From assembly GCA_021811585.1 (NCBI GenBank), contig JAJZOG010000007.1, positions 57,459 to 121,458 of the forward strand: a stretch of DNA of 64,000 bases, in the 5' to 3' direction. Made by a program: the position numbers and the translations under genes. Below the pieces are notes generated by a model that searched no databases, had not been told where the DNA came from, and saw nothing but the letters and a program-made list of their open reading frames with translations. Below are positions 2,807-21,099 of this stretch, one piece after another (the first letter of the stretch is position 1; the number at the start of each line of letters is the position of its first letter). Source of the stretch: a bacterium (GTDB lineage: Bacteria > Patescibacteriota > Doudnabacteria > UBA920 > VMFF01).

Positions 2807-3150
2807 CCTTGATTTCAGAGTTTTGAGCCGCTTGGCCAGAGAAACCGAAATTCCGAGTATTTTTTTTGCAAACGCTATCAGCCGATTAATGGAGGATTGG
2901 ATAGGGTCTCCTTATTATTCCGAGCCGTGAAAATTGCGCGAAAGTCCTTAATTTTCCGCATAAAAGTGATGCGGCGCAGCTTTACGGACGGTTTAACAAG
3001 CTTAAGTTCTTAACGGGTAAATCCTACCAGAATCAGTATCAGCGTTCAAGTATTTTGTCCAAATGCTATTTAATTATGGCTTAAATAAGCGACTTTTTAT
3101 CCACAATACGCGAAAACATTGGGATTTTGGCTTATTTGCGTTAAAAGCCG

Positions 3151-3156
3151 TATAAT
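3151..3156 (+). promoter_or_regulatory. TATAAT -10 box 7 nt upstream of the pcrA ATG (leaderless-type start)
   Basis: 'gccgTATAATcaaaagtATG'. The same TATAAT-7nt-ATG geometry is seen at dnaE and at the 57362 gene. Confidence 0.35.
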
Positions 3157-3163
3157 CAAAAGT

Positions 3164-6228: not shown

Positions 6229-6340
6229 TAGTTGGTAGATGGTAGGTGGTAGTTAATAGATGGTAGTTGGTAGTTAATAGTTAGTAGTTAAAGGTAGTCC
6301 CTTTTTAACTACCAACTACTAACTATTAACTACCAACTTA
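6219..6340. repeat. Tandem heptamer-like repeats (GGTAGTT / AATAG units) running into a ~30-bp imperfect hairpin immediately after the ksgA stop
   Basis: 'ggtagttaatagttggtagatggtaggtggtagttaatagatggtagttggtagttaatagttagtagtt' followed by its reverse complement 'aactaccaactactaactattaactaccaac'. Loop is 'aaaggtagtcccttttta'. Confidence 0.6.
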
Positions 6341-6456
6341 ACGCTGTTAAAAAAATTGGTGGTTCCTCTTGCAGAAAAATTTGAAATCTGCTATAATAAC
6401 TATAGTGAGATTGATATTTTCGAAACACAAACAAAAGACAAGTAAATAAAGGGAAC

Positions 6457-7239
6457 ATGCAAGAAATTCCAAGCCAAAACATCCGTTCGGGAACGGATTT
6501 CGGCTTTAAAAATATTGCTTTGATTGCGGTCTGCGCGGCTTTTTTGGTATTTGCCGGCTATTGGCAATATCCGGGATCTTTTCCCGGGCATTTTTCGTTG
6601 TTTAATCCGGTTTCTTCTTCTGACGGAAACTTGGCCTTGGCAACCCCGCCAAAGCCTTTTGATTTAACTTTGGCAGGAGGCGCAGACGGTGTGGGCTCAA
6701 CAATGTTTGCACAGAATAATTCGGGAAATTTGGCTCAAGGAAATTCAGCACAAGGGGTTTTGGCTCAAGGAAATTCAGCGCAGGGAAATTTACCCGAAAA
6801 TAATTTGGACCAATCCGCAGGCGCACAGACGAGCGCGGTTTTAGGTGCGACAACTTATGATAAAAATTTCGCCGAGCAGTTCAATTCCATTCCCCTCCAG
6901 CTGATTGCGGATAATTCCACGGCAGCTTTGCAAACCTATGCCGGCCAGGTAAACGCTGTCTTGCAGGCGGACAATGCCGCCGGACTTGTGAGCGCCGCGA
7001 AAAAATCCGGAGCCGAAAAAAACGGAGGCCTCAGCGCGGCGCAAAATAAATTCATACAGGATTTCCAGGCAATAGCAGTCCCTGACTCTTTGCTTGATTA
7101 TGCGCGCATGTTTATAGGCAGCTATGCCTTGCAGTTTGTGGGCGACCCGAAATTGGATGCCACAATATCGCAGGCAAATTCTGAACTGGGAATCATAAGG
7201 CAGCAAGTCCGGCAGTCCAGCCAAATCGCATTGCCATAA
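6457..7239 (+). CDS. Hypothetical membrane-anchored protein (N-terminal TM, low-complexity linker with GN(L/S)AQG repeats, C-terminal domain)
   Basis: ATG with weak RBS; TM segment 'IALIAVCAAFLVFAGYW'; tandem 24-nt coding repeats at 6720-6790. Confidence 0.5.
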   Translation: MQEIPSQNIRSGTDFGFKNIALIAVCAAFLVFAGYWQYPGSFPGHFSLFNPVSSSDGNLALATPPKPFDLTLAGGADGVGSTMFAQNNSGNLAQGNSAQGVLAQGNSAQGNLPENNLDQSAGAQTSAVLGATTYDKNFAEQFNSIPLQLIADNSTAALQTYAGQVNAVLQADNAAGLVSAAKKSGAEKNGGLSAAQNKFIQDFQAIAVPDSLLDYARMFIGSYALQFVGDPKLDATISQANSELGIIRQQVRQSSQIALP

Positions 7240-7261
7240 ATTTTTTTAAAATCTTTCAGGC

Positions 7262-8284
7262 ATGTCCAAAAAAGCTCTCATAATTTCAGGCCTCTCGGTT
7301 CTCGCGGTAATTATAATTATTGCCGTGGTTTTGGCTTTGGGCAAAAAAACGCCGCAACAGGCGCAGAATCAAAACCCAACTACCGGCACAGGAACAGTGG
7401 GGCAACAAGAGGGCCAGCAGGCGCCTCAGCAACAGCCGGCTTTCCAAATTCATACCGACAACTCGCAGCCGTACGCGGTAAATGCGCCGCGCTCCAATGA
7501 GCCGCAGCAGCAGCCACAACAGCAGCAGGCAAATTCATTAGGCCAGCAACAGCAAACACAAAAACAGCTTGCCGCCGCCATAGCCGCAGGCGTGCTTCCT
7601 GATGCCAATGGAAATTATGTCCAGAAAATAGATAATTCCGGAGTAAACCAATTTGATGTCTCACAATATAATTATGATTTGCCTGACAATCAATTCCTGC
7701 AGGCATATTATCCGGATGCATCGCAAGTAATTAACGCACAGACGCCCACTGACATGGCTTTGAATGCGCAGGACCCTGTGCTTATTAGCAGCACAAGCGG
7801 AGGATCTTCAAACACTGCTCCAGAAGCCATCCCTTTAAACAATGCCGTTGATCCAAGCCAGTTGAAGGTTTCGCAAGACAACAGTGCGGAGGCGATTAAT
7901 AATTATTTGCAGGGCCTTTCAAGTGCAACGGCGCCTTATGATGTTGTAGACAATACCGGCCTTATGAGCGCAATTGCCGGAGGCACTTCCAGCGCAAACG
8001 ATTTGAAGCAGGCGGGATCCACTGTCTCGGGAATCATAAGCCAATTAAAACAAGAACCGGTGCCAAGCGACATGCTCGGGTTGCAGCAGTCATATGTTGC
8101 AATGTATGAAAATTTAAGTTCAAGCATAAATGATGAAGAAAACATGCAAAATGATAAAAGCGCTTCGGCCTTGAATTCAGATGCCCAGGCATTCCAAAAC
8201 GATATAAATAATTTTACGGATTCGTATAGCCAGGTCGGCGACGATTTTACGATAGTGCAAAATGATTACGGAACAGGCCAATAG
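7262..8284 (+). CDS. Hypothetical membrane-anchored protein with a Gln/Pro-rich linker
   Basis: N-terminal TM 'LIISGLSVLAVIIIIAVVLAL', Q-rich low complexity, C-terminal globular region; same strand and tight spacing as its neighbours. Confidence 0.5.
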   Translation: MSKKALIISGLSVLAVIIIIAVVLALGKKTPQQAQNQNPTTGTGTVGQQEGQQAPQQQPAFQIHTDNSQPYAVNAPRSNEPQQQPQQQQANSLGQQQQTQKQLAAAIAAGVLPDANGNYVQKIDNSGVNQFDVSQYNYDLPDNQFLQAYYPDASQVINAQTPTDMALNAQDPVLISSTSGGSSNTAPEAIPLNNAVDPSQLKVSQDNSAEAINNYLQGLSSATAPYDVVDNTGLMSAIAGGTSSANDLKQAGSTVSGIISQLKQEPVPSDMLGLQQSYVAMYENLSSSINDEENMQNDKSASALNSDAQAFQNDINNFTDSYSQVGDDFTIVQNDYGTGQ

Positions 8285-8307
8285 CCTATTGCATTCAAGC
8301 CAAAAAA

Positions 8308-9588
8308 ATGAAAAACAAATACGCGAAAATATTAATAATGATTGTGCTTACGCTCACCGCAAGCGCTTCGCTGTTCTTTGCCAAGCCGCACAAAACAAAA
8401 GCGTTTTTGGGTTTCGGCGACATTGTTGCCATAAACCTGGATGATTTGTTCAAGTCCGTTGCCTTTACCATTGCAAATTCCTTGAACCAGCGCTTTACGC
8501 GCCAATTTATGTCGCAGGCGCTGTCAAAAATGAAAGTTCAAAATTACGATATTTATACGCGGAACCTTGCCAACCAGGTTTATATGACAACTGCGCTGAA
8601 AGGCACGACTCCTACAAAGCAATATGTAACCAGGGTGCTGGCAGCAGAAGCCGGCGGACAGCCGATTCAAGACATCAATGGCAATACAATAACCGGCGCT
8701 GACCTTGTTCCGATTTTCAAGCACCAGGCAGTGGAACATTTTAATTTTTTTGATGCGCAAAAGCAGATGTATTCCGGCACTCCGATGGCTTTCAGTTTGT
8801 CGCATGCAGGAGATCTGCAATCAAATCCTTCGAACATTGGCACAACAGCGGCAACTTATGCGGTGCAGACAAGTACAAAGGCGCTGGCACAGGCGCAGGC
8901 AGATACCTCAGCGGCCAACGGATATAAATCAACTTACAATTGCGGAGTAGGGAATAAAGGCCCGTCAACAAAAACGCAAGATCTCGGCAAAGCGGCTTGC
9001 GTAATTAATGATCCGGGGTCTTTTGTTTTTAATGAAATGCAAACGCAAATTGATAAGCTCGGGAAACAGGCCGTACAGCCGACAAACCATGCCATGGCTG
9101 CCTGGGAATTTGCGGCAGATAATTTTGCAACTTATTGGATGAACCGGCTGTTCAATAATGCCAACGGCAATCCGATCTCTGACATCAATTATATTACCCA
9201 ACCGCTTCAGCAATTAGTGGAATCAAGTTTGCAGAGGCCGCAATTTTACATTGTCGACGACAAAGGTAATAAGACATATGGCAGCGATATCCCCGGTAAA
9301 ATTAATGTGCCTGTGGATCCCGGATCATCAATGACTATTGTTTGGGATTCAAGCAAGGTCTTAAATGCTTCCAGCGTGCATTTAACCGAAACATCATGTT
9401 CACCTCAAACCCAGCAATGTCCGCCATCCGGCGATTTGCCCTTGAGCGGGAATTATACTGTAAATTATGACGGCAATTCAGACACATTTACTTTGGATAC
9501 ATATACCGTGGATAACAGCGGGGCAACTGTTTTGAAATACAAATACATATTGACAGTAATACAAACTTTGCCGCTCTCCGGAGGATAA
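8308..9588 (+). CDS. Hypothetical secreted protein
   Basis: Signal peptide 'ILIMIVLTLTASASLFFA'; followed by a rho-independent terminator. Confidence 0.55.
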   Translation: MKNKYAKILIMIVLTLTASASLFFAKPHKTKAFLGFGDIVAINLDDLFKSVAFTIANSLNQRFTRQFMSQALSKMKVQNYDIYTRNLANQVYMTTALKGTTPTKQYVTRVLAAEAGGQPIQDINGNTITGADLVPIFKHQAVEHFNFFDAQKQMYSGTPMAFSLSHAGDLQSNPSNIGTTAATYAVQTSTKALAQAQADTSAANGYKSTYNCGVGNKGPSTKTQDLGKAACVINDPGSFVFNEMQTQIDKLGKQAVQPTNHAMAAWEFAADNFATYWMNRLFNNANGNPISDINYITQPLQQLVESSLQRPQFYIVDDKGNKTYGSDIPGKINVPVDPGSSMTIVWDSSKVLNASSVHLTETSCSPQTQQCPPSGDLPLSGNYTVNYDGNSDTFTLDTYTVDNSGATVLKYKYILTVIQTLPLSGG

Positions 9589-9625
9589 CATAAAGAATTT
9601 TTTGTGTATTTTTGCGTTGTTTGCA

Positions 9626-9658
9626 AGGCCTCTGCGAATCCGCGAAGGCCTTTTTGTT
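9626..9658 (+). terminator. Rho-independent terminator
   Basis: Hairpin 'aggcctctgcgaatccgcgaaggcct' followed by 'ttttgtt'. Confidence 0.6.
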
Positions 9659-9729
9659 ATACACAGAAAGCGGTTTGCTTTCCATTTGCATTTATGAGAT
9701 AATTATTATGTGAACTTAAGCAAAAAAGC

Positions 9730-12552
9730 TTGATTTTTGAAACAAAAAAACATAAAAAAATAAATTGGAAAGCCCTGCGAACGGTTGCATTGGCAACCGA
9801 GGTTTTTGTTCTGATTTTTGGTATGTTATTGGGCGGATTTGCCGGGCAATTGAAAGCCAAACCTGTCTTTGCGGACAATTCCAGCAGTTCCAGCGATTGC
9901 ACTGTTGCTAAAAATGGCGATTGGCTGGAGCCCACCCCTGTTTCAGCTAATATTATCACAGGAGGGCGTACCCTTACATACAATGAAAAAATGAACGCTG
10001 TTACAGCGGATGAAAATAAAGGGTATGGATCTGCTGATCCAGCTGGTAATGGAGTAGATATTCATTTTAAAGAAACCGTTTATCCTCCCGGGAATTCCGG
10101 TGATACGCACGGTGTCGGTTATGCAGACAATTCGAAATTGACGGCATATATACAGATATTATTGATAGATCCGAACGGTAAAAAAACAGACATAACGAAA
10201 AATGCTTTCGATCATGGCGCACAATATTTTCAATATGTTGACACTGGCGGAATATTCAGCAGCCCCAGTTATGAGCCAATTAGTAATCCTGGACCTGATT
10301 CGAACGGGCACTATGTATTCGATTATGTATATAATACCGATACTATAATTTCCGTCCCATTTAAATTTGTTTATTTTGGAATTACATCTGCTCCTGCACA
10401 AAATCAAAATTATCAATTGGAGGTTGATTTTGTAGCCACAAAATTTCAACTAACCCAAACTTTTTCGCCAGGAGAATATGGTTCTACAAATATTTCTTGT
10501 GAACAAGATTTTTCTCCGCCGATACAAATTAAAAATATCGGCGCGGCAGCATTAACTCTTTCAACTGCGGCTGTTCCAAATCAAGGCGGGAGTGGCGGAT
10601 CGTCGCAAGCGCTTCAAAGCACAGCAAATCCGAATGATTCGAATTTCAGCGCACTTGGGACTTTTTTGTCCGATGTTTTTGATTTTATTTTTGGGATTTT
10701 GATCAATATCTTGGTCAAAGTTTTCGGCGTCCTCGCAAATATTATTGCCGCTGTCCTTGCAATATATCCGCACCAGGCGGATTTTGCCGGAGTAATTTTC
10801 GCAAGCTGGGTGGCAGTAAGAAACATCAGCAATATTTTCTTTATGCTCGCTTTGTTGATGCTCGGCTTGGGCACAATGTTCCGTTCGGATAAATTCGGAA
10901 GCAAGGGGCTGCTTGGGACCATTATAGTAATGGCGCTACTTACGAATTTCAGCTTGGTTATTGGCAGGGCAATTTTAGGGGTTGCCGATACTTTGCAGGC
11001 GCAATTTTTGCCCGCAAACTCTCATGTTATTGAACGGCTTGGTGCTGCATTAATGCAGGGCGGATATTTAAATGCAACCTACAATTATACGGTTAGCTCT
11101 ATTGCAGGGTCAATGGCCAGCGTTATAAATAATTTTTTGTATTTGTTTATGGCCTTGTTCAGCTTCATGGCCTTTGTTGCCATTGCCGTATTGCTTGTGG
11201 TCCGCCTTGTGGCGCTCTGGCTTTTGCTTTTAACTTCACCCATCGCCTATGCAGGCAGAGTTCTCACATATACGAAAAATTATGCCTCAATGTGGTGGAA
11301 GAAATTTTTGCAATATGCCTTTTTCACGCCTATTTTAGGATTTGGCTTGCATCTCTGCGCGCTGTTTGCCGATAACCAAGGCACTTATTTGAATAATTCG
11401 CTGACAAACCAGTTGGCGCAAAACCAAGTTGTTAAAATTGGAGATTTCGGGCAGTTCCTATTTAATATTTTGAGCGGCGTCACCATTCTTGCCTGTTTGT
11501 TTATGGTTATGAAAGTTGCAAATACATTCGGAATCGCCGGCGCGAACGCGATAACAAAGCATACCACGGACAAGGTCACGGATTTGGCGCGCAAAACAGG
11601 AACAGGCGCGCGCAAAATGGCTGGCAAGCCGCTCGGAATTGCAAAACTTCAGGGAAAAAACTTTTTGGCCAGGGGCAGGGATAAATGGCAAGGAAAGCTG
11701 CTTAGGGATAAAGAGGGAAATATGCGTACCGGTGCGGCTGGTATTGCGGGCAGGGCTGTCCATCGAATTTTTAATCCGAATGCTTATTTGGAATCGGTTG
11801 AAAGAGATTTGAAAAACGAAAGAGAGGGTTTGCAAAAAGTTTCCAAGGCGCGCATTGAGGCCGGCAGGACTTTCGGGCAAACCAGCTTGGGGCGCTTTAA
11901 GCAGACCGCCGGCATTGATAATCGCGCGGACTTAAGAGAAAAGGAATCGCAGAGAGACGAGGTTGTAAAGACAATGATGACCATGAGACCCGAAAAAGTT
12001 GGCGAATATCTAAGGGCGCTCGGCAAGAATGGCAAGCTTTCGGCATCAGAGGATATGCTTAAAGAAATCATACCGGCAATGATTAAATCCGGGCAAGACG
12101 AAAAGGTTTGGCGCGATATTATAAATAAAGGCGAAACAGATCCTGCTAAGATGGTTATAAAGCCAAACGAGACGTTGACGCCGACAATGATTAATAACGG
12201 TCTTCAGGAATTGGCTGGTGATGATAAAGGGGCACTTGAAATCATTAAGAAGAGTTGTTCGGACATTGGCAAAAAAGAGGTAAATCTTATGGCAATTATC
12301 ATGGGCATTACGGATAAGGCAGAGGCCGATGCGGAATTGGCGAAATACGTAATGAGCATGGATAGCGATAAATTGAAGGAACTAAGAGACAAGAGAGTCA
12401 AGGGCATTGTTACTGAGGGCGGTTTTGACAATACGTTTGCGGCTGCCAAACAGCGGGCTGACGATATGAGCGCTTCTGACCAGAATAAATTGGATGAGCA
12501 TGGCCGCAAGTTTTTCGGCTTGCCGCCAAAAAAGAAAAAAGGACAGCCATAA
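9730..12552 (+). CDS. Large polytopic membrane protein with VirB6/TrbL-like architecture: N-terminal anchor plus ~270-aa exodomain, about six TM helices, ~300-aa charged C-terminal tail
   Basis: Hydrophobic helices 'FIFGILINILVKVFGVLANIIAAVLAI', 'FMLALLMLGLG', 'FMALFSFMAFVAIAVLLVVRLVALWLLLLTSPIAYA' and 'ILSGVTILACLFMVM'. Lys/Arg/Glu-rich tail. Lies in a VirB4-containing locus. Confidence 0.4.
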   Translation: MIFETKKHKKINWKALRTVALATEVFVLIFGMLLGGFAGQLKAKPVFADNSSSSSDCTVAKNGDWLEPTPVSANIITGGRTLTYNEKMNAVTADENKGYGSADPAGNGVDIHFKETVYPPGNSGDTHGVGYADNSKLTAYIQILLIDPNGKKTDITKNAFDHGAQYFQYVDTGGIFSSPSYEPISNPGPDSNGHYVFDYVYNTDTIISVPFKFVYFGITSAPAQNQNYQLEVDFVATKFQLTQTFSPGEYGSTNISCEQDFSPPIQIKNIGAAALTLSTAAVPNQGGSGGSSQALQSTANPNDSNFSALGTFLSDVFDFIFGILINILVKVFGVLANIIAAVLAIYPHQADFAGVIFASWVAVRNISNIFFMLALLMLGLGTMFRSDKFGSKGLLGTIIVMALLTNFSLVIGRAILGVADTLQAQFLPANSHVIERLGAALMQGGYLNATYNYTVSSIAGSMASVINNFLYLFMALFSFMAFVAIAVLLVVRLVALWLLLLTSPIAYAGRVLTYTKNYASMWWKKFLQYAFFTPILGFGLHLCALFADNQGTYLNNSLTNQLAQNQVVKIGDFGQFLFNILSGVTILACLFMVMKVANTFGIAGANAITKHTTDKVTDLARKTGTGARKMAGKPLGIAKLQGKNFLARGRDKWQGKLLRDKEGNMRTGAAGIAGRAVHRIFNPNAYLESVERDLKNEREGLQKVSKARIEAGRTFGQTSLGRFKQTAGIDNRADLREKESQRDEVVKTMMTMRPEKVGEYLRALGKNGKLSASEDMLKEIIPAMIKSGQDEKVWRDIINKGETDPAKMVIKPNETLTPTMINNGLQELAGDDKGALEIIKKSCSDIGKKEVNLMAIIMGITDKAEADAELAKYVMSMDSDKLKELRDKRVKGIVTEGGFDNTFAAAKQRADDMSASDQNKLDEHGRKFFGLPPKKKKGQP

Positions 12553-12555
12553 AAT

Positions 12556-13395
12556 ATGGATACCATAGAGCTTAAACAAATAATAAAAGACCCGGTTTCT
12601 CCCGCTGATTTTCAAACAATTCAGGATGAGGCGAGGGATTGCCTTGAATTCGGGACAATCCAGGACAAAATGGATTTTGCGGATTATATTTCCGAGATTC
12701 TTTCCGCGAACGGAAGCGCGCTGGACAAAGCCAATGCCGAAATGCTGGACCAGTATGAAACGCTTTGGGCGCTTTTGGCATTCGGCGCGTTTGTTGCTTA
12801 TCATTCCGCGGACCAGGACAACCTTATCCGCACCCGCCTGCTGTTTGCGGTGCAAAGGGGTTTTGAAACAGATGATATTATCCGCCAATATTATTATTTT
12901 TTTAACAGCGACGATTTCATCAGCTACAACTTGAAGCTTTTTGTGAAGAGTATTGAACAGAACACCGAGACACTTGGCGATTTTCCGATTTCCATCGACG
13001 GCAAGCGCATGCTGCCGCAGATAAAATATTGGGTTTTGGATTATTCCAAATATCCTTCGCTTGTTGCCAGGCGCGGCGGCGTTGAGCGGCTGAATTATAT
13101 AAACCACAGCGGCAATATTGTCCAGCTGACGCAGGTGCAGAGGCAAAATCTTTTGGAGATTTTGAAATTTTATGATGATTTGCAGAATCCTTCGCGCCCG
13201 TTTTTGAAAAACGAGAAAGCAGATGTACAAGAGGCGATTTCTGTTCCGGTTGATGTTCCGGCTGCTCCGCTGCCAAAAGTGCCACAGCCGGCGCCGCAGG
13301 CAGCTGTGCAACAAAATTTTTCCCAGCCGTTCGCAAACATACAAATAGACATTCAAGGCAAATTGGATGATTTAAGGAAAAGGACTCAAGAATAA
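12556..13395 (+). CDS. Hypothetical cytoplasmic protein in the T4SS-like locus
   Basis: ORF on the operon strand, overlapping the next gene by 1 nt; no recognisable motif. Confidence 0.45.
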   Translation: MDTIELKQIIKDPVSPADFQTIQDEARDCLEFGTIQDKMDFADYISEILSANGSALDKANAEMLDQYETLWALLAFGAFVAYHSADQDNLIRTRLLFAVQRGFETDDIIRQYYYFFNSDDFISYNLKLFVKSIEQNTETLGDFPISIDGKRMLPQIKYWVLDYSKYPSLVARRGGVERLNYINHSGNIVQLTQVQRQNLLEILKFYDDLQNPSRPFLKNEKADVQEAISVPVDVPAAPLPKVPQPAPQAAVQQNFSQPFANIQIDIQGKLDDLRKRTQE

Positions 13396-14255
13396 TGCAT
13401 GATGAAGATTTGAAAAATGCGCGCATACTAATTGAGCAAAGCAGGATTTTGTCATCCATAGAGAAGACAGAATGGCTTCAGTTATTGCCTTTGATGAATG
13501 ATCAGCAAATAAACGAGCTAATAAGGATTTTGCAGGAGCAGGTGCAAAGGCAACCCGCGGCAACACATTCAAAAGCCGCATTCTCCTCAACCACGGCATC
13601 CGCGGCGTTTAAATTGCCGGACATTGCGGAATTGGAATTGCCTCCGCCGCCCAAGCCATTAATACCGAAGGCACCGCCTGCAATGCCAAAGCCGTTTGCA
13701 CAGCAGATACAACCGCGCGAACAAGCGGCAAATGCGGAAGATGTTGCTAAAATTCTTGAACATTTTAAAACCGCGCCCGCGCTTTCGCCGCGCGCCGCTC
13801 AAGGCGCGGTTCAACAACATATGCGGCAACCCGTATCGCCGGTTCAGCCGCAAAAAGCCGCATCGCATGCATCGGGATTAAAACCCGCTGCTCCGCCGCG
13901 GCCAATGGCCGGCCAGGAATTGGTTTTGCACTCCGCGGAAGATCTAAAAAAAATTACTCCCGCCGCTCTTCATGGCAAAGACCCTTATTCGGTTTTCCAG
14001 AAAATTTTGGATTTCCTTGCAGAGCAATCAAAAACCGCCAGTGTTGTTTCCATGATCTCTTATTTAGAGCAAAGCCCAATACAGCAAATATATGTGCAAA
14101 CAGGAGCGATTTTATTGAATAGCAGCAATGCGGATGGCAGCGAAGCGGCTTTCCAAAAAATTGTGGATTCCGCCAAAGCCAGTGGTGCGCAATACATGAC
14201 CAAAGAAGAATTCGAGGCCTACGCCGATTTTAGGAAAGAGCTCGAAAAGCTGTGA
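13395..14255 (+). CDS. Hypothetical Pro/Ala-rich protein in the T4SS-like locus
   Basis: ORF on the operon strand; middle part is Pro/Ala/Gln-rich low complexity. Confidence 0.45.
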   Translation: MHDEDLKNARILIEQSRILSSIEKTEWLQLLPLMNDQQINELIRILQEQVQRQPAATHSKAAFSSTTASAAFKLPDIAELELPPPPKPLIPKAPPAMPKPFAQQIQPREQAANAEDVAKILEHFKTAPALSPRAAQGAVQQHMRQPVSPVQPQKAASHASGLKPAAPPRPMAGQELVLHSAEDLKKITPAALHGKDPYSVFQKILDFLAEQSKTASVVSMISYLEQSPIQQIYVQTGAILLNSSNADGSEAAFQKIVDSAKASGAQYMTKEEFEAYADFRKELEKL

Positions 14256-14267
14256 TATAATGAATTT

Positions 14268-14705
14268 ATGCAAGTACCAGTACCACAATTTATTGATGTC
14301 GAAGACAAAATTTTCGGCCCGTTTACTTTAAGGCAATTTGCTTTTATCTTTATTGGCGGTCTGCTTATTGCCGCGCTTTTCCGCATTTTCCACCTCTCTT
14401 TCGTTTTTTTCATTTTGGCGCTGCCAATTGCCGTAATTTTTGCTGGCATTGCTTTCGGAAATTTTAACGGCAGGCATATTTACAACACCATCCCAATTTT
14501 TATTTCGTTTTTCACATCGCCGAAAGTTTTTGTTTTTCATCGCGAAAGAATTCAGGATGAAGTCAGCATCTCAAGGCCAGTGGCAAAAACTCGGGATGCC
14601 GCAGCGCCTGTTTCCACTGAATCCCCGCGCTCACGCCTAAAGCAGTTGTCGCTTTTATTAGATCAGAAAAACCAGGAAGAGATTGAAAACTTAAAAAATC
14701 TTTAA
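14268..14705 (+). CDS. Small two-TM membrane protein, TcpE/PrgI/VirB3-like by size, topology and position just upstream of VirB4
   Basis: 'FTLRQFAFIFIGGLLIAALF' and 'FFILALPIAVIFAGIAF' hairpin TM pair, 145 aa. Confidence 0.4.
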   Translation: MQVPVPQFIDVEDKIFGPFTLRQFAFIFIGGLLIAALFRIFHLSFVFFILALPIAVIFAGIAFGNFNGRHIYNTIPIFISFFTSPKVFVFHRERIQDEVSISRPVAKTRDAAAPVSTESPRSRLKQLSLLLDQKNQEEIENLKNL

Positions 14706-14711
14706 TTCCAT

Positions 14712-15401
14712 ATGGCAAAAGTCACTGCCCCGACAACACAATCATTTTTGAAAATTGCGGAAATCAAATCCGATACTTTAATATTGAACGACGGCACTTA
14801 TTGCGCTGTTATCGTGATTTCCAGCACCAATTTCGATTTAAAAAGCCCGGAAGAGCAAAACGCGCTTATCGCAGGATACCAAAACTTTTTGAATTCTCTG
14901 GATTTTAACATTCAGATTCTGATGCAATCGCGGAAAATGGATATCCATTCCTATTTGCAGAACATGAAAAATTTAATGGAACAGCAGACCAGCGAGCTTT
15001 TGCGCGTGCAAACAGCAGAGTATATAGAATTCATAGCAAAGCTTATTGAGAATTCCAGCATTATGAGCAAGAATTTTTATGTCATTGTGCCGTATCGTTC
15101 CGGCCTGGGAGGAGGATCTTCCGGAAAAGAAAAGAAAAAAGGATTTTTTGCCGGATTATTCGGCGGCGGAAGCGGCAATGCCGGGCAGGAGCTGCAAAAA
15201 AAACTGCAAAAATTCGACACTGACCGTGAAAAATTGGATGAGCGCGCTAATGCTGTTATAGGCGGCCTTTCGGCCTTGGGGCTTAAGGCCATTGCGTTAA
15301 ATACCGAGGAGCTCACGGAACTTATCTACAATTCTTACAATTTGGATGCCGCGCCTTTAATTGATTCTTCAAAATTAAGCGAAGTGCAAATTAAGGAATA
15401 G
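14712..15401 (+). CDS. VirB4 N-terminal-domain-like protein encoded as a separate ORF; either a split VirB4 or a distinct subunit
   Basis: 'LKIAEIKSDTLILNDGTYCAVIVISSTNFDLKSPEEQNALIAGYQNFLNSLDFNIQILMQSRKMD' resembles the CagE/TrbE/VirB4 N-terminal module. The TAG stop is 2 nt before the ATG of the ATPase ORF, in a different frame. Confidence 0.45.
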   Translation: MAKVTAPTTQSFLKIAEIKSDTLILNDGTYCAVIVISSTNFDLKSPEEQNALIAGYQNFLNSLDFNIQILMQSRKMDIHSYLQNMKNLMEQQTSELLRVQTAEYIEFIAKLIENSSIMSKNFYVIVPYRSGLGGGSSGKEKKKGFFAGLFGGGSGNAGQELQKKLQKFDTDREKLDERANAVIGGLSALGLKAIALNTEELTELIYNSYNLDAAPLIDSSKLSEVQIKE

Positions 15402-15403
15402 CC

Positions 15404-17257
15404 ATGCCCATTATTGTCCCGCCAACCAGGGAAGAAATAGAAAAGAAAAAACAGGTGCTTGCGCAAGCCGAGGAAGAGCGGAAAACCACCAAAAATATTG
15501 CCGCAACCGAAAAGGAATACCGCGAAGGCCTCACCAAGCTTAAAGACATACTTGCGCCTGCCGCGCTGTCTTTCGGCAACGCTAATTTTGAGCTCAATGG
15601 AAAATTCGGGCGCAGCTTTTTCGTGCTCGCATACCCCCGCTATCTTTCATCCGACTGGCTTTCGCAGATAATAAATTTGGATACGCCCATGGACATGTCC
15701 ATGTTTATTTATCCCGTTGATTCTGCCGATATCATGAAAAAGCTCAAGGCAAAAGTCGGGCAAATAGGTTCGCAAATGGATATCCAGGCGGAAAAGGGGA
15801 ATGTGCGCGACCCGCTTTTGGAAACCGCTTACAAAGACGTGGAATTTTTACGCGACGAACTTCAACAGGGCACTGAAAAATTTTTCCGTTTCGCCTTATA
15901 TTTTACGATTTATGCCGAAAATCTGGAAGAATTGGACCAATATTCCAGCATTTTTGAAAGCACGCTGGCAGCCAAGCTTGTTATTACCAAGCGCGCGATT
16001 TTACAAACCAGCCAGGGCCTTAATTCCACTTTGCCGGTTTACGCGGATGAGCTGGATGTTGCCACGAACATGAACACTTCGCCGCTGGCAACAACTTTTC
16101 CGTTTGTCTCGGCGGATTTAAGCTCCAACGAAGGAATTCTGTACGGCATAAACCGGCACAACAACAGTTTGATTATTTTTGACCGTTTTAACATGGAAAA
16201 TGCGAACAGCGTGGTCTTCGCCAAATCCGGTGCCGGAAAATCCTATGCCGTGAAATTGGAAGTCCTGCGCAGCATGATGGTTGGCGTGGATGTGATTATT
16301 ATTGATCCTGAAAACGAATACAAACACCTTTCAGATGCTGTCGGCGGCACTTATATTAACATTTCCTTAAATTCGGATTCGCGCATCAACCCTTTTGATT
16401 TGCCGATGCCTTTGGAAGGCGAGGATAATGCCGATATTCTGCGCAGCGCGATTATCAATTTGATCGGCTTGCTTTCCCTGATGATAGGTAAAATGACGCC
16501 GGAAGAAGAATCCATTATGGATAAGGCGCTTTGGCAGACCTATGCAAAAAAAGATATTAGCGAAACCAGCGATTTCCGAAATATCAGCGCTCCGACAATG
16601 AGCGATTTGGTGGAAATACTTTCCGGCATGGTTGGCGGCGAAGGCCTGGCCCAGCGCCTGACAAAATACACGGAGGGCACATTCGCCGGCGTCTTTAATC
16701 AACCCACTAATATTGTTTTGAACAACCAGCTTGTGGTTTTTTCCATTCGCGACCTTGAAGACGAACTGCGCCCCATTGCCATGTATGTGATACTCGGGCA
16801 CATTTGGAACGTGGTGCGCTCCCAGCTTAAAAAAAGAATTTTGGTTTTGGACGAGGCCTGGATTATGATGCAGTTTGAGGACTCCGCGCGCTTTGTTTTC
16901 GGCATTGCCAAGCGCGCGCGAAAATATTATTTGGGGCTCACCACAATTACGCAGGATGTCGCGGATTTTATGGCCAGCTCCTACGGCAAGCCGATTGTCA
17001 CTAATTCTTCAATCCAATTGCTGCTTAAGCAGTCGCCGGCTGCCATTGACGTGCTTGCCAAAACATTCTTTTTAACCGAAGGAGAAAGGTATTTGCTTTT
17101 AGAAAGCGAAGTTGGGGAAGGAATTTTTTTTGCCGGCCTTAAGCACGCTGCCATAAAAATTTATGCTTCTTATGTCGAGGACCAGATTATCACAACAGAT
17201 CCGCGCCAATTGTTGGAGATCCAGCAGGCAAAAGATGAAATAGACGGGAAAGGATAA
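15404..17257 (+). CDS. VirB4/TraE/TcpF-family T4SS ATPase (conjugal-transfer ATPase)
   Basis: Walker A 'VVFAKSGAGKSYAV'; family signature 'IIIDPENEYKHL'; Walker B 'ILVLDEAWIMM'; 'GLTTITQDVADF'. Confidence 0.8.
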   Translation: MPIIVPPTREEIEKKKQVLAQAEEERKTTKNIAATEKEYREGLTKLKDILAPAALSFGNANFELNGKFGRSFFVLAYPRYLSSDWLSQIINLDTPMDMSMFIYPVDSADIMKKLKAKVGQIGSQMDIQAEKGNVRDPLLETAYKDVEFLRDELQQGTEKFFRFALYFTIYAENLEELDQYSSIFESTLAAKLVITKRAILQTSQGLNSTLPVYADELDVATNMNTSPLATTFPFVSADLSSNEGILYGINRHNNSLIIFDRFNMENANSVVFAKSGAGKSYAVKLEVLRSMMVGVDVIIIDPENEYKHLSDAVGGTYINISLNSDSRINPFDLPMPLEGEDNADILRSAIINLIGLLSLMIGKMTPEEESIMDKALWQTYAKKDISETSDFRNISAPTMSDLVEILSGMVGGEGLAQRLTKYTEGTFAGVFNQPTNIVLNNQLVVFSIRDLEDELRPIAMYVILGHIWNVVRSQLKKRILVLDEAWIMMQFEDSARFVFGIAKRARKYYLGLTTITQDVADFMASSYGKPIVTNSSIQLLLKQSPAAIDVLAKTFFLTEGERYLLLESEVGEGIFFAGLKHAAIKIYASYVEDQIITTDPRQLLEIQQAKDEIDGKG

Positions 17258-17259
17258 CC

Positions 17260-18261
17260 ATGCCTGTTGCCCAAAGCGACGATAAAATTTCGGGTGCAGG
17301 CGCTGGCATTGGCACAGGCAGAGTTTCCGGAGGCGCTTTGGGTGGCGCCAAATTTAAGGGTTTCGGGCCAAAATCGTTGCGGGGTATTATTCGAAATTTG
17401 CCGCGCGGCATAGACGGGGTGATTGCGGCGCCTGATGATGAGAAATCGCCCGGCGAGGAGGAATTGCATGCGGAGCAAGAAACTGATGACAGTGAAAATC
17501 TTGAGTATGAAAATGGCTTGGAAAATGAAAGCTACGGTATGGATGTAGACGAGGATGGGGATGAGGGCGAAGACGAGGAAGATGAAAAAGATGAAAATGA
17601 AGGCCCGAACCTGAAAGACGCTTATGATGCTTATAAAAAATATCAAGAGGAGATTCCGGAAACCGCAGAGAATGTTGAGCAGATAGGCGAGGCAACACAG
17701 ACCGCTGAAGCGGCTGAAGCTGCTGAGGGTGCGGCGACTGCTGCAGAAAGCACTGCCGCTGTTGCCGAAGGCGCTGCCGGAGCCGCAGAGGGCGCTGCCG
17801 GCGCGGCTGGTGCGGTTGCGGCAGAGGGCGGTGCAGTAGTGGCCGGCGCAGGCACCGCGGCTGCCGCAGAGGGCGCTGTTGCCGGTGAGGCGGCTTTGGG
17901 TATTGCAACAGGAGGGGTGGGTATAGTTGTTGAGATATTTGTTGTTATTCTGTTCTTGCCGCTTGTGGTTTTTTTACTCGATTGCTACCTTTTTGCAGGT
18001 TTTTTATTTCCGAATTCGCAGTTTCTGCATCTTTTGCCGACAAAAGGCGTGCTGCCCAAATTGATTATTGCCGTATTAAATATCCTTGCTTTCATTGAAG
18101 TGCTTATTCTGTATATAATTTTTTACGTAATGGTTTGCGGCGGAATTGCGGGAGTGGCTTTCAAGCTTAGTGCTTTTGTTACCGGCCAAAAATCCTTTTG
18201 CAGCGGCGGGCCTTCGGTGCCATGGAGCGTTTGGTGGCAGGGCGTTAAAGCCGCACTTTAA
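17260..18261 (+). CDS. Hypothetical protein: acidic N-terminal half, Ala/Gly/Glu-rich repeats, C-terminal ~3 TM helices
   Basis: 'DEDGDEGEDEEDEKDENE', 'AEAAEAAEGAATAAE', then 'GIVVEIFVVILFLPLVVFLL' and related TM segments. Follows VirB4 after a 2-nt gap. Confidence 0.5.
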   Translation: MPVAQSDDKISGAGAGIGTGRVSGGALGGAKFKGFGPKSLRGIIRNLPRGIDGVIAAPDDEKSPGEEELHAEQETDDSENLEYENGLENESYGMDVDEDGDEGEDEEDEKDENEGPNLKDAYDAYKKYQEEIPETAENVEQIGEATQTAEAAEAAEGAATAAESTAAVAEGAAGAAEGAAGAAGAVAAEGGAVVAGAGTAAAAEGAVAGEAALGIATGGVGIVVEIFVVILFLPLVVFLLDCYLFAGFLFPNSQFLHLLPTKGVLPKLIIAVLNILAFIEVLILYIIFYVMVCGGIAGVAFKLSAFVTGQKSFCSGGPSVPWSVWWQGVKAAL

Positions 18262-18289
18262 AAATTTAACCAAAATTTAACAAAAATTT

Positions 18290-19663
18290 ATGAACAAAAA
18301 AATATATATGTTGTTGGGAGGAATATTGGTCTTAATTGTCATAACCGTGGTTTTTATCTTTTATTTGAGTTCAAAAAATAAAGCGGCAACCCAAAACCAA
18401 ACCGCGCAACAATCGTCGCAAAATAATGGGGGATCCGGCTCAGATGGCTCTGGGAATGGTTCTGGCTCTGGGAGCGGTTCGGGCTCTGGGAGCGGTTCGG
18501 GCTCTGGGAATGGCTCTGGCTCCGGGAACGGCTCTGGTGGAAATGGCTCCGGTGGGAATGGCTCTGGCTCCGGGAACGGCTCTGGTGGAAATTCGAGCGG
18601 CAATTCCGGAAATTCCGGCCAAAGCAGTGCACCCCAATTTTTAACGGCAATTACCAATGACAAGGCAATTAGCCCTGCTCTTTCTTTTGACGGCCAGGCA
18701 ATTTGGTATTTTACCTCAAACGGCCACCTTTATAAGGAAAATTTAACCACCGGCTTGAAACAGGAAAAGCTTTTACCTTCGCAGTTACCGGTGAGCGCGG
18801 TAATTTGGCCGGCATCCGGAAATGATTTTATTGTGGAGACAGATTCATCTTCAGGGAAAACATTCAATTATTATAAAAGTTCTGACGGCACATTTACGCA
18901 ATATCCCCCGCAAGTTAAAGAGGTTGCCTTTTTGCCTGACGGCGCGCACGTGGCTTACGATTGGTCCGACAATAGCGGCTCCTATTTGAGCATCGCCAAT
19001 TCGGATTTAACCAACCATCAGACAATTGTGAAATTACCGGACAATGACGATGCGCTGCAGGTTTCTCCGACTTCGGCCAATATGATTTTGGCTTACAATG
19101 CCGCAAACGCGCAAAGCGGAAAATTATATTACATCAGGACAGACACAAAAGCCATCACAGCCATAAAAACCGGGGAAAGCAATCGTTCTGAATGGGCGCC
19201 GGACGGCGAGCATTTTTTATATTACAAATTGAATCCGCAAAACTTTTCAGACAAAGAGCTTTGGCTGGGTAATATTCAAAACGGTACGGATCAGCAGCTT
19301 GGGATTGATGCACCGTTTTCAAAGCTGAATTTTTCCGGCGACAGTTCGGATTTGTATTTCGCAACTTCAGGGGCAAACGGGGATTCTATTTGGAAAATGG
19401 ATTTGCAAAGCTTGAATAAGAGCTTGCTTTACGCTTCTTCTCCCACGCCGATTAGCGCCAGGAATTTGTTTTTGTCGGCAGATTCCGGCACTTTGTATTT
19501 TATAAATTCAGATGGATTAGTTTATGCTTTGAATTTGTCGGCCGCGCAAAACGCCTCGGGCGGCGGGAGCGCGAACAGCAGCGGCGGTATCGGCGGAAAC
19601 ACAAACAGCAGCGGCGGAACCAGTGGGAATGGGAACAGCACCGGCGGCAGCGGCGGACAATAA
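18290..19663 (+). CDS. Membrane-anchored PD40/TolB-like beta-propeller protein with a long (GSGSGNGS)n linker
   Basis: N-terminal TM; 'GSGSGSGSGSGSGNGSGSGNGS' linker; propeller-blade-like motifs 'EWAPDGEHFLYYK', 'VAFLPDGAHVAYDWSD' and 'DLYFATSGANGDSIWKMD'. Confidence 0.55.
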   Translation: MNKKIYMLLGGILVLIVITVVFIFYLSSKNKAATQNQTAQQSSQNNGGSGSDGSGNGSGSGSGSGSGSGSGSGNGSGSGNGSGGNGSGGNGSGSGNGSGGNSSGNSGNSGQSSAPQFLTAITNDKAISPALSFDGQAIWYFTSNGHLYKENLTTGLKQEKLLPSQLPVSAVIWPASGNDFIVETDSSSGKTFNYYKSSDGTFTQYPPQVKEVAFLPDGAHVAYDWSDNSGSYLSIANSDLTNHQTIVKLPDNDDALQVSPTSANMILAYNAANAQSGKLYYIRTDTKAITAIKTGESNRSEWAPDGEHFLYYKLNPQNFSDKELWLGNIQNGTDQQLGIDAPFSKLNFSGDSSDLYFATSGANGDSIWKMDLQSLNKSLLYASSPTPISARNLFLSADSGTLYFINSDGLVYALNLSAAQNASGGGSANSSGGIGGNTNSSGGTSGNGNSTGGSGGQ

Positions 19664-19785: not shown

Positions 19786-21099
19786 GTGAAATCAAAAATT
19801 ATTTTTCGCTGCGAATCCTGCGGCGCGCAATACCCGCGCTGGCAGGGGAAATGCACCCAGTGCGGCGCCTGGGATACTTTGGCGGAAACCAAAGATTTTT
19901 CAACTGTTTCCAAGGCGGCAGCGGCACAATTTCAGCTTCTTGCAGACGTTGATAATAAAAAAACCGCGCGCCTGCCCTCGGGAATCTCCGAATTCGACGA
20001 GGTTTTGGGCGGGGGAATTGTTGCCGGCTCGTTAATATTGCTTGGCGGCGATCCCGGCATAGGCAAATCAACTTTGGCGCTGGAAATAGCGGAAAAATCC
20101 GGGCTGAAAGTTTTGTATGTTTCCGGAGAAGAATCTTTACACCAGCTGAAAATTCGCGCAAGCAGGATAGCATCCTCGGAAAATATTTTTGCAGCGTCGG
20201 AAACCGGCCTGGAAGCGATTATTGCCGCGATATCTTCGCTGGAACCGCAGCTTGTTATTTTGGATTCCATCCAAACGATTTACAGCGAAAGCGCAAGCGG
20301 CGTGGCAGGAAGCGTTGCGCAGGTTTCCTATGCCATGCAAAATATAATGCATTTGGCAAAAGGGAAGCATATTTCATTTTTGATTATCGGGCATGTCACA
20401 AAAGAGGGCTACTTGGCAGGGCCAAAGACCCTGGAGCACATGGTGGATACTGTTTTGTATTTGGAAGGTGAGCGGTTTGCGGCTTTGCGCATTTTGCGAT
20501 CCGTGAAAAACAGATTTGGCGCCAGCAATGAAGTGGCTGTTTTTGAAATGAATTCCAAAGGGCTCTTCGCGGTAAAAAATCCGTCTGAAATTTTTATCCA
20601 GGAAACAGGGGGCAAATCGTCCGGCAATATCGCGACTGCCGTGATGGAAGGCAGCAGGCCGATTTTGCTGGAAATTCAGGCGCTCACTTCAAAAACCGGC
20701 TTCGGATATCCCAAAAGGACGGTTTCCGGTTATGACCTTAACCGTTTGCAATTGATTGCCGCGATAATAGGCAAGCGGCTGGGTGTTAATTTGTCGGATC
20801 AGGATATTTATGTGAATGTTGTTGGGGGCATGAAAATTTCCGATCCCGCCGCTGATCTTGCCGTTGCCTTGGCAATAATTTCCAGCGTCAAAGACAAGGC
20901 GCTTGGAAATATTTTGGCAATAGGGGAGCTTGGGCTTTCTGGCGAAGTGCGCATGGTTGCCAATTTGGAAAAGCGCGTTCGCGAAGCCGCGAAATTCGGC
21001 TTTGAAAAAATCGTTTTGCCGGGATCAAAAATTGCCGCGGAGAAAGAGGATCTTTTAAAAGTGAAGACCCTGAAAGATGCCGCAAGATTGATGCTTTAG
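19786..21099 (+). CDS. radA: DNA repair/recombination protein RadA (Sms)
   Basis: Zinc finger 'CESCGAQYPRWQGKCTQCGAWDTL'; Walker A 'LLGGDPGIGKSTLAL'; 'KNRFG' motif; Lon-like C-terminal domain. Start is a GTG. Confidence 0.85.
   Translation: MKSKIIFRCESCGAQYPRWQGKCTQCGAWDTLAETKDFSTVSKAAAAQFQLLADVDNKKTARLPSGISEFDEVLGGGIVAGSLILLGGDPGIGKSTLALEIAEKSGLKVLYVSGEESLHQLKIRASRIASSENIFAASETGLEAIIAAISSLEPQLVILDSIQTIYSESASGVAGSVAQVSYAMQNIMHLAKGKHISFLIIGHVTKEGYLAGPKTLEHMVDTVLYLEGERFAALRILRSVKNRFGASNEVAVFEMNSKGLFAVKNPSEIFIQETGGKSSGNIATAVMEGSRPILLEIQALTSKTGFGYPKRTVSGYDLNRLQLIAAIIGKRLGVNLSDQDIYVNVVGGMKISDPAADLAVALAIISSVKDKALGNILAIGELGLSGEVRMVANLEKRVREAAKFGFEKIVLPGSKIAAEKEDLLKVKTLKDAARLML

Follow-up and report, generated by a model that had tools for sequence, protein, structure and literature searches.

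In a survey of 3,035 Patescibacteria genomes, VirB4, the ATPase of type IV secretion systems (T4SSs), was found in 2,417, and nearly all of these VirB4s belonged to a monophyletic 'Patescibacteria clade' (2,407 assemblies) nested in the mating-pair-formation class MPF-FATA (Quinonero-Coronel et al. 2025, PMC12102498). TrsD was the most abundant component accompanying VirB4, PrgI/VirB3 and VirB6 were encoded near virB4, and VirB8 was rarely detectable. Relaxases occurred in 103 of the 3,035 genomes; homologues of the type IV coupling protein (T4CP) lay mostly far from virB4, and VirD4 homologues were present in most Patescibacteria genomes. KsgA was common near virB4, and in the class ABY1 comF, recG and radA co-localised with it, which was read as 'functional coordination'. 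The VirB4 phylogeny indicated vertical inheritance within classes (PMC12102498). Here we analysed a cluster of genes around virB4 at positions 6457-19663 of a 64,000-nucleotide stretch of DNA (contig JAJZOG010000007.1, positions 57,459 to 121,458, assembly GCA_021811585.1), hereafter the window. Sequence and gene-order comparisons provide good support for assigning the cluster to the chromosomal T4SSs of the Patescibacteria clade, as a derivative of MPF-FATA in a Doudnabacteria-like genome from the candidate phyla radiation (CPR), and the system probably works as an envelope machine at the interface between epibiont and host. An earlier note on this DNA had regarded the composition of the apparatus as largely uncharacterised. 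Most of its structural proteins indeed have no recognisable domain, but this kind of machine is already described in the literature (2023-2025).

The functional reference is the cluster SEML1_0006-0019 of the Saccharibacteria species Southlakia epibionticum (S. epibionticum), which has no recognisable coupling or relaxase proteins. Most of its genes, SEML1_0012 not among them, were essential in transposon sequencing (Tn-seq), and the T4SS was called essential for epibiotic growth (Wang et al. 2023, PMC10633639). The first part of the cluster encodes pilins, a VirB6-like protein, an NTF2-like protein, a 998-amino-acid (aa) UBA/ARM-repeat protein and PrgI (Table S2, PMC10633639), and the second part a TrsD-like hypothetical protein, VirB4, a DD-peptidase, and a lysozyme plus a cysteine proteinase, with comF nearby (PMC10633639). 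A review treated these systems as a new T4SS subgroup and speculated that they are a conduit for signals or for the uptake of host molecules (PMC12857230). Few machines besides the Patescibacteria T4SS are known to be essential to epibiotic life in this huge and mostly uncultivated radiation. Doudnabacteria are not named in any of the three papers, and the terms 'propeller' and 'TolB' are absent from PMC12102498.

The cluster in the window consists of 11 co-directional open reading frames (ORFs), each named here by the length of its product in amino acids:

6457-7239, plus strand: p260, bitopic membrane protein (single transmembrane (TM) window; homologues in the same position)
7262-8284, plus strand: p340, bitopic membrane protein with a Gln-rich linker (single TM window)
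8308-9588, plus strand: p426, putative surface-exposed protein with helical and Ig/FN3-like domains (predicted structure)
9730-12552, plus strand: p940, 'extended' VirB6/TrbL-like polytopic channel protein (TrbL family hits, TM windows)
12556-13395, plus strand: p279, predicted cytoplasmic alpha-helical-repeat (ARM/TPR-like) protein (predicted structure)
13395-14255, plus strand: p286, second predicted cytoplasmic protein (no TM segment; family alignment)
14268-14705, plus strand: p145, PrgI-family (VirB3-like) small membrane protein (PF12666)
14712-15401, plus strand: p229, TrsD/TraC-like protein corresponding to the VirB4 N-terminal domain as an ORF of its own (NCBIfam, PF26593)
15404-17257, plus strand: p617, VirB4 ATPase motor domain of the CD1110/MPF-FATA type (NF045971, PDB 4ag5)
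17260-18261, plus strand: p333, acidic Ala/Gly-rich membrane protein (composition, TM windows)
18290-19663, plus strand: p457, TM-anchored TolB-like beta-propeller (match to TolB 4r40)

The intergenic gaps are, in order, 22, 23, 141, 3, -1, 12, 6, 2, 2 and 28 nt. The tight packing described in the earlier note, with gaps mostly below 30 nt and a 1-nt overlap, was therefore confirmed; its count of twelve ORFs was one too high, and an ORF scan found room in the gaps for no additional ORF of at least 30 aa. Clear positional homologues were found in other genomes for 10 of the 11 ORFs, p333 belonging to a weak family only, indicating that the ORFs are real genes rather than chance reading frames. 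The GC content of the cluster (0.43-0.50) is the same as that of the remainder of the window.

Three components of the T4SS core were recognised. p617 scored 356.6 bits (cut-off 325) against NF045971, the CD1110 family, over model positions 172-728, and also matched P-loop_TraG, AAA_10 and DUF87 in Pfam. It matched the solved C-terminal domain of VirB4 (PDB 4ag5) with an E-value of 9.5e-45, as against 4e-6 for TrwK, and contains a Walker A motif (AKSGAGKS), DPENEY at 301 and a Walker B motif (ILVLDE) at 479. The VirB4-family ATPase reported before, with its DPENEY and Walker motifs, was thus verified, but the nature of the ORF in front of it had been missed. The p229 ORF ends 2 nt before the virB4 ORF. 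Its product corresponds to the N-terminal region in models of full-length VirB4 (NF045975, positions 103-233; NF045971, positions 2-119), and it also matches TrsD/TraD (NF041427) and carries the precomputed annotation PF26593, 'TraC-like'; a single-sequence search of the PDB with p229 was empty. Judging from these model positions, VirB4 is encoded as two adjacent ORFs at 14712-17257, a TrsD/TraC-like N-terminal domain (229 aa) and the ATPase (617 aa).

p145 matched PF12666 (PrgI) with 34 bits (cut-off 27) and has hydrophobic segments at residues 15-33 and 45-63, in agreement with the two-TM VirB3-like protein proposed previously; by analogy, it would be the membrane partner of VirB4. The VirB6/TrbL-like character of the 940-aa protein was borne out at the family level. 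p940 itself scored 16.8 bits against TrbL (PF04610; cut-off 25.9, E 0.0058, residues 399-585), which is below the threshold, and has a weak precomputed hit to TrbL_3. However, TrbL was matched by 17 of the 35 aligned p940-family members from related loci, with a best E-value of 1e-8. The protein is predicted to comprise an N-terminal anchor, an extracytoplasmic domain of about 280 aa, a bundle of TM segments at about 327-594 and a charged cytoplasmic tail of about 340 aa. On these family matches the assignment of p940 as VirB6/TrbL-like holds. The family profile gave nothing meaningful against PDB sequences, only Pro/Ala-rich or coiled-coil matches. Searches of Pfam and NCBIfam gave no hits to VirB2, VirB7, VirB8, VirB9 or VirB10 among the cluster proteins, and equivalents were found only for VirB3, VirB4 and VirB6. 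A related contig labelled Moraniibacteriota (L070) carries three VirB6-family paralogues (308-2521, 2541-4781 and 6349-8577), two of them in tandem and the third farther on, before TrsD-VirB4.

To compare gene order, we collected the 80 best VirB4 matches with one genome per species. Many of these loci end at contig ends, and the family counts are therefore minimum values. All 80 are from metagenome-assembled genomes (MAGs) of CPR/Patescibacteria, a few of which carry other organism labels, and their VirB4s are 57-82% identical to that of the window. The closest loci are in Ca. Doudnabacteria MAGs (VirB4 identity 81-82%), with a near-identical gene order from ksgA to radA, and the low end (57-61%) consists of bins labelled Moranbacteria, Gracilibacteria and Berkelbacteria. 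The recurrent order is (ksgA), p260 family, (p340 family), p426 family, VirB6, p279 family, p286 family, VirB3, TrsD, VirB4, a variable membrane protein, (a bitopic protein of about 180 aa), propeller, radA. VirB4 occurs in all 80 loci, TrsD in 73, PrgI (VirB3) in 68, the p457 propeller in 58, p279 in 55, VirB6 in 49, p286 in 48, p426 in 32, p333 in 20 and p260 in 11. The split of VirB4 was accordingly seen in 73 loci, the PrgI gene directly precedes TrsD-VirB4 in 68, and VirB6 lies upstream of VirB3/VirB4 in 49. The gene order thus recurs across the CPR set, down to a reduced core of VirB6, p279, VirB3, TrsD, VirB4 and, farther on, the propeller, which is kept in distant lineages including Moranbacteria-like loci. 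The helical-repeat protein p279 and the TolB-like propeller p457 extend beyond the Doudnabacteria-like lineage into other CPR classes; p286 and p426 were found in Doudnabacteria-like loci only. The helical-repeat protein and its partner, the helical/Ig-like surface protein and the propeller are conserved, unannotated accessory families that travel with the T4SS core.

Some organism labels in this set appear out of place. Dozens of third-party-annotation (TPA) assemblies titled 'uncultured Candidatus Saccharibacteria' (L003, L005, L007-L009, L011-L013 and others) contain VirB4s 72-81% identical to that of the window in a Doudnabacteria-type order, and a few of the loci in the distant group bear the titles Micavibrio or Bdellovibrionales. 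The organism labels given to these bins do not seem reliable.

The locus agrees with the published Patescibacteria-clade systems in being chromosomal and relaxase-free and in having a PrgI/VirB3 gene and a TrsD-like ORF of its own before the gene for a VirB4 of MPF-FATA ancestry. It also shares with them the upstream VirB6-like gene, a cytoplasmic protein with helical repeats encoded between VirB6 and PrgI, and housekeeping neighbours, namely KsgA and, as in class ABY1, comF, recG and radA. In contrast to S. epibionticum, the window has no VirB2-like pilin array, which is essential there, no recognised NTF2/VirB8-like protein and no peptidoglycan hydrolase after virB4; the 333-aa acidic membrane protein occupies the slot of the large peptidoglycan DD-peptidase. 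Conversely, the TolB-like propeller and the helical/Ig-like surface protein of the window are not discussed in PMC12102498 or PMC10633639. The window thus presents a compositional variant of a known system, with a split VirB4, VirB3 and VirB6 and with no pilin, operon hydrolase or recognisable VirB8.

Among plasmid-borne VirB4s outside CPR, the highest identities are 35-36%, for proteins from Bacillota and Actinomycetota (Pontibacillus, Embleya, Streptomyces and Priestia) that are annotated as CD1110 family or not at all. CD1110-family VirB4, PrgI/TrsC-type VirB3 and VirB6-like proteins are shared with the MPF-FATA systems of pGO1/pIP501 and with CTn2 (CD1110), and in pGO1/pIP501 TrsD is likewise a separate small ORF. 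As in these Gram-positive systems, the envelope is monoderm and there is no VirB7/9/10 outer-membrane core. Unlike those systems, the locus has no relaxase, T4CP, in-operon VirB1-type hydrolase, recognisable VirB8-like protein or PrgB-type adhesin, and it is not located on a plasmid or an integrative and conjugative element (ICE).

The closest VirB4 outside CPR (35.5% identity) is encoded on an 898-kb replicon of Pontibacillus sp. ALD_SL1 (NZ_CP062975.1, 346328-368088). The order there is the same: a VirB6-like protein (779 aa), a PrgI-like protein (116 aa), a TrsD-like protein (274 aa) and a VirB4 of about 620 aa. The matches to the CPR families are clear for the PrgI-like, TrsD-like (E 1e-29) and VirB4 proteins and weak for the 779-aa protein against VirB6. 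The Pontibacillus locus differs in having Mbov_0395-type pilin-like genes upstream and, as in S. epibionticum, a large peptidase after virB4, here a DD-metalloendopeptidase of 1,050 aa; it has no homologues of p279, p286, p426 or the propeller. This layout indicates that some Bacillota loci have the split VirB4 and the core order in common with CPR, but not the helical-repeat pair, p426 or the propeller. Within 10 kb of the Pontibacillus cluster there is no annotated relaxase, and the replicon is typed as non-mobilizable; possibly this is a T4SS without a relaxase in a genome of the Bacillota. It directly adjoins the flagellar genes flgM, flgK, flgL and fliD.

For the seven cluster proteins outside the core, searches of Pfam and NCBIfam yielded nothing significant, even with the limit set at E ≤ 10. 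The three proteins p260, p340 and p426 each have one N-terminal hydrophobic segment, consistent with the anchored or secreted proteins described in the earlier note. Profile and sequence searches of Pfam, NCBIfam and the PDB gave no VirB8 match for any of the three. p260 has a TM window at residues 15-33, a Gly/Gln/Ala-rich repeat linker and a C-terminal domain that is probably helical; nothing was found for it in Pfam, NCBIfam or the PDB, and its homologues occupy the same position in 11 related loci. p340 (TM window at 6-24) is poorly conserved, with clear homologues only in the two loci L002 and L004, no PDB match, and Pfam matches that are low-complexity noise. An iterated search with a hidden Markov model (HMM) of p340 drifted into the propeller family via low-complexity linkers and was discarded. 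BLASTP showed no similarity between p260 and p340, and the possibility that they are paralogues was rejected.

The structure model of p426 contains an N-terminal signal or anchor, a helical domain at about 44-308 without a known structural relative and an Ig/FN3-like beta-sandwich at 312-417. A VirB8-like identity was excluded, because the predicted structure is helical plus Ig-like instead of an NTF2 fold. From this model, p426 is a candidate adhesin or distal component of the machine; a VirB5-like helical bundle is conceivable as well. The public gene call of p426 is 416 aa long and starts 10 codons downstream of the start of the longest ORF, and the boundary of the N-terminal anchor is thus uncertain. 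Many members of the p426 family (L005, L007, L013, L015, L022, L031 and others) have a conserved C-terminus, '...GA...P-RG(P/E)', after the Ig-like domain, which might be a sorting or processing signal; the window protein ends differently, with '...LPLSGG'.

The two proteins encoded between VirB6 and VirB3 are predicted to be cytoplasmic. The structure model of p279 consists of helical repeats, a disordered Pro-rich linker and a terminal helix, and contains no nucleic-acid-binding fold. Its position makes it a candidate for a conserved T4SS-associated scaffold or adaptor. p286, whose start overlaps the p279 stop by 1 nt, has no TM segment and no Pfam or PDB match; a conserved helical motif at its N-terminus is followed by a Pro-rich linker and a C-terminal domain of about 90 aa, likewise conserved, and P149, S227, Y233, G237 and D278 are invariant in the family alignment. 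Family profiles of p279 and p286 gave only Pro/Ala-rich or coiled-coil matches among PDB sequences, none of them meaningful. In one related locus (L055), p279 and p286 are both matched by a single 573-aa ORF, which looks like a fusion of the two.

The acidic, Ala-rich membrane protein of the earlier note was found as p333: its N-terminal two-thirds are acidic, Ala/Gly-rich and probably disordered, followed by two to four C-terminal TM segments, and tblastn gave no hit at 1e-5. The slot after virB4 is hypervariable in relatives, with membrane proteins of 137-1218 aa that have one to three TM segments and no Pfam domain (for example L005 11863-14448, L015 11929-14991, L032 and L016). Among the relatives' proteins of 861-1020 aa in this slot and the neighbours of 180 aa and 112-219 aa, one weak Rce1-like match was the only Pfam domain. 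The idea that p333 is a truncated hydrolase could not be demonstrated, as the relatives' proteins in the slot have no Pfam domain. In many relatives, an ORF for a bitopic protein of about 180 aa follows the variable gene; it is missing from the window.

p457 has a TM window at residues 8-26, a Gly/Ser/Asn repeat linker, a predicted extracytoplasmic propeller and a Gly/Ser/Asn tail. It had been called a PD40 propeller. Weak propeller-type hits, the best being TolB 4r40 (E 1.7e-4, residues 205-378), agree with the propeller part of this description, but PD40 was not supported by Pfam. Several linkers in the cluster are encoded by in-frame tandem DNA repeats, at 6724-6792 in p260 (GNLAQ-type), at 17738-17800 in p333 (Ala-rich), and at 18445-18592 and 19561-19656 in p457, where Gly/Ser/Asn linkers lie at both ends of the propeller. 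The repeats suggest that these linkers are fast-evolving and possibly length-variable surface spacers.

From established knowledge of T4SSs and the genetics of S. epibionticum, VirB4 hexamers with the detached N-terminal domain would dock in the cytoplasmic membrane on VirB3 and VirB6. On the substrate side, the helical-repeat pair p279/p286 and the cytoplasmic tail of VirB6 may form a scaffold or adaptor that stands in for a dedicated coupling protein. A wall-spanning conduit and the contact with the host cell would then come from the ectodomain of VirB6, p426, the propeller and the two bitopic proteins. Such a machine would move macromolecules across the epibiont-host interface, the likeliest cargo being protein effectors on their way out or host-derived molecules on their way in. 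p279, p457, p286 and p426 are concrete candidates for the parts still missing, those that recruit substrates and those that contact the host, and could guide structural or genetic work in tractable relatives.

Several points weigh against this explanation. The placement of VirB4 in the Patescibacteria clade is derived from the ranking of identities and from synteny, not from a tree of our own, and p940 alone falls short of the Pfam threshold for TrbL. No VirB8-, VirB1- or VirB2-like component was found within the operon, and a locus so reduced in composition relative to the pilin array and hydrolases of S. epibionticum could work differently. The roles proposed for p279/p286, p426 and p457 are inferred from position. 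Finally, what the system does is extrapolated from a single species of Saccharibacteria; Doudnabacteria have yet to be cultivated.

The surroundings of the cluster bear on the alternatives. The window was examined by scanning every ORF of at least 150 aa against Pfam, and the contig was read past both window ends (about 13 kb of extra flank, about 77 kb in all). The immediate downstream neighbours are:

19786-21099, plus strand: radA (sms) (Pfam zinc ribbon, KaiC/AAA_25 and Lon_C/ChlI)
21109-23319, minus strand: recG, convergent with radA

Preceding the cluster in the window are genes for a DUF11 surface protein, a CHAP-LysM protein (1646-2806, minus strand), UvrD/PcrA and KsgA. Beyond RecG follow tRNA-Arg, tRNA-Ser, an extracytoplasmic function (ECF) sigma factor with a DUF5667 protein, a major facilitator superfamily (MFS) transporter and an NlpC/P60 protein. 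Further genes in the window encode a ComF-like phosphoribosyltransferase (38896-39699), ClpB, RecX (42457-43017), GatA/GatB, MiaA, ThrRS, DnaE, FtsW, L25 and PrfA; outside the window lie ArgRS, IleRS and RecO on one side and L31, PyrF, S2, EF-Ts and a sortase on the other. The radA gene immediately downstream, comF, recX and the CHAP-LysM gene had all been pointed out before; recG had gone unmentioned. The CHAP-LysM protein, whose gene lies 3.6 kb upstream on the opposite strand, is the only hydrolase close to the cluster; it could provide the VirB1 function, its link to the operon being proximity alone.

No T4CP, relaxase, VirB11 or integrase was found in the approximately 77 kb. The window ORFs of at least 500 aa were all identified (the DUF11 protein, UvrD, VirB6, VirB4, RecG, ClpB, GatA, GatB, ThrRS and DnaE), and none is a T4CP. 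For pilins, there was no Pfam match among the window ORFs, a pilin domain was found in no small two-TM pilin-like ORF, and no pilin was among ten small ORFs with two or three TM segments that were sampled in related loci. The absence of T4CP, relaxase, VirB11 and pilin genes from the locus, which the earlier note had observed, therefore extends to the window. Its description of a chromosomal T4SS-type apparatus with a VirB3/VirB4/VirB6 core, and not a conjugative element, likewise stands, given the housekeeping synteny and the lack of a relaxase.

The earlier note had concluded from the lack of a coupling protein and a relaxase that the arrangement is one for DNA import. According to this explanation, the cluster would be a ComB- or Ced-like import machine that passes DNA to the neighbouring RadA and RecG, with ComF and RecX farther off. 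The genes themselves give it some footing. radA, a housekeeping recombination gene, follows p457 by 122 nt on the same strand and is possibly the last gene of the T4SS transcription unit in this lineage; recG is convergent, a ComF-like gene and recX are present in the window, p617 has a weak similarity to CedB, and the co-localisation in class ABY1 has been read as functional (PMC12102498). Among the 58 propeller loci, radA lies less than 400 nt after the propeller gene in 40, and 7 more are cut before radA could appear. However, 10 loci, distant lineages among them, have no radA despite room for it. The adjacency is limited to one sub-lineage; more distant lineages retain both T4SS and propeller but have lost it, as would be expected of inherited gene order. 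The ComF-like gene and recX, moreover, are 19-23 kb off amid unrelated genes, and the p279 model lacks a DNA-binding fold.

Comparison with the import systems themselves does not strengthen this explanation. Like ComB and Ced, the locus combines a VirB4-type ATPase with a polytopic membrane protein and has no relaxase or coupling protein. H. pylori ComB, however, needs VirB2 and VirB7-10 homologues, which were not found here, and it operates in a diderm envelope and acts upstream of ComEC; no set resembling CedA/A1/A2 of crenarchaeal Ced was recognised in the window. The similarity of p617 to CedB (NF041017) amounts to 45.4 bits against a cut-off of 700, and that to CedD to 18.8 bits against a cut-off of 600. 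The likeness to ComB and Ced is thus limited to what is missing. What is missing does not specify import either, because Bordetella Ptl and Brucella VirB lack a T4CP and yet export proteins (PMC12102498, PMC12857230). In addition, the competence of S. epibionticum requires comEC and type IV pili; deletion of comEC abolished competence while viability was kept, and the T4SS remained essential (PMC10633639, cited after PMC12857230). ComEC-dependent DNA uptake can therefore not be the reason why the T4SS is essential (PMC12857230). Taken together, we consider a DNA-import machine unlikely.

A more unusual scenario can also be drawn. The Doudnabacteria-type T4SS would have lost pilins and in-operon hydrolases, gained the propeller and the helical/Ig-like surface protein, and had radA co-transcribed; a Gram-positive-type T4SS would thereby have been repurposed for contact-dependent import of DNA or nucleotide polymers that feeds recombination or salvage, with p279/p286 replacing the coupling protein. 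This scenario seems quite improbable to us.

It is also conceivable that the cluster only assembles an adhesive or surface structure, either as an attachment organelle or for display of p426 and the propeller, and that no cargo passes into or out of the partner cell. The adhesin-like Ig/FN3 domain of p426, the long low-complexity linkers in the extracytoplasmic proteins and the lack of a substrate-recruiting T4CP fit such a role, and VirB4 drives pilus biogenesis in other T4SSs (PMC12102498). No VirB2-like pilin was found, though, in the locus, the window or the sampled small membrane ORFs of relatives, and Patescibacteria already adhere by means of type IV pili (PMC12102498, PMC10633639). Handling of substrates on the cytoplasmic side is suggested instead by p279 and p286, which are conserved cytoplasmic proteins, and by the large tail that VirB6 has in the cytoplasm. 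An exclusively adhesive function is accordingly very unlikely, and a transport machine at the epibiont-host interface remains the preferred explanation.

We give hardly any credence to an ordinary conjugative element or decayed ICE with its relaxase, coupling protein and oriT elsewhere in the genome, because, although the CD1110 family is named for conjugative elements, T4CP genes are often distant from virB4 in Patescibacteria (PMC12102498) and our inspection covered about 77 kb of the genome, the locus shows no integrase, flanking direct repeats or tRNA-gene insertion (the nearest tRNA genes are at least 3.7 kb downstream, past radA and recG), its GC content matches that of the flanks, the same housekeeping flanks and order recur across dozens of genomes at the species level, where VirB4 identity follows relatedness, and the published data show vertical inheritance and few relaxases (PMC12102498). 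The conserved housekeeping flanks and the lack of a relaxase, coupling ATPase and integrase in the inspected region lead us to conclude that the T4SS locus is not a mobile element.

Two sequence elements precede the first gene of the cluster:

6207-6338, plus strand: long, imperfect hairpin of 7-nt repeats between ksgA and the operon (tandem repeats, RNA fold)
6368-6397, plus strand: candidate operon promoter (by-eye sequence reading)

The first is a 130-nt block of TGGTAGT/TAATAGT repeats that begins within the final codons of ksgA, whose stop is at 6228. Its inverted arms (6265-6289 and 6314-6338) are complementary over 25 bp at 100%, and RNA folding gave -50.7 kcal/mol with z = -4.7. The motif is virtually confined to this block within the window, with a single match with two mismatches elsewhere. 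Gene coordinates show that the related loci L002 and L004 lack the spacer, the first T4SS gene there adjoining ksgA. The hairpin is probably a terminator or insulator of ksgA; alternatively, it could be a small palindromic insertion. The candidate promoter comprises TTGCAG, a 17-nt spacer and an extended -10 element, TGcTATAAT, about 60 nt before the first ATG. It was read by eye and is absent from the list of the consensus scan; sigma-70 and terminator scans performed no better than on shuffled sequence and were hence not used. About 5 kb downstream of the T4SS, on the minus strand at 24230-25934, the gene for the ECF sigma factor (201 aa) overlaps that for the DUF5667 membrane protein (370 aa), and the two are likely a sigma/anti-sigma pair.

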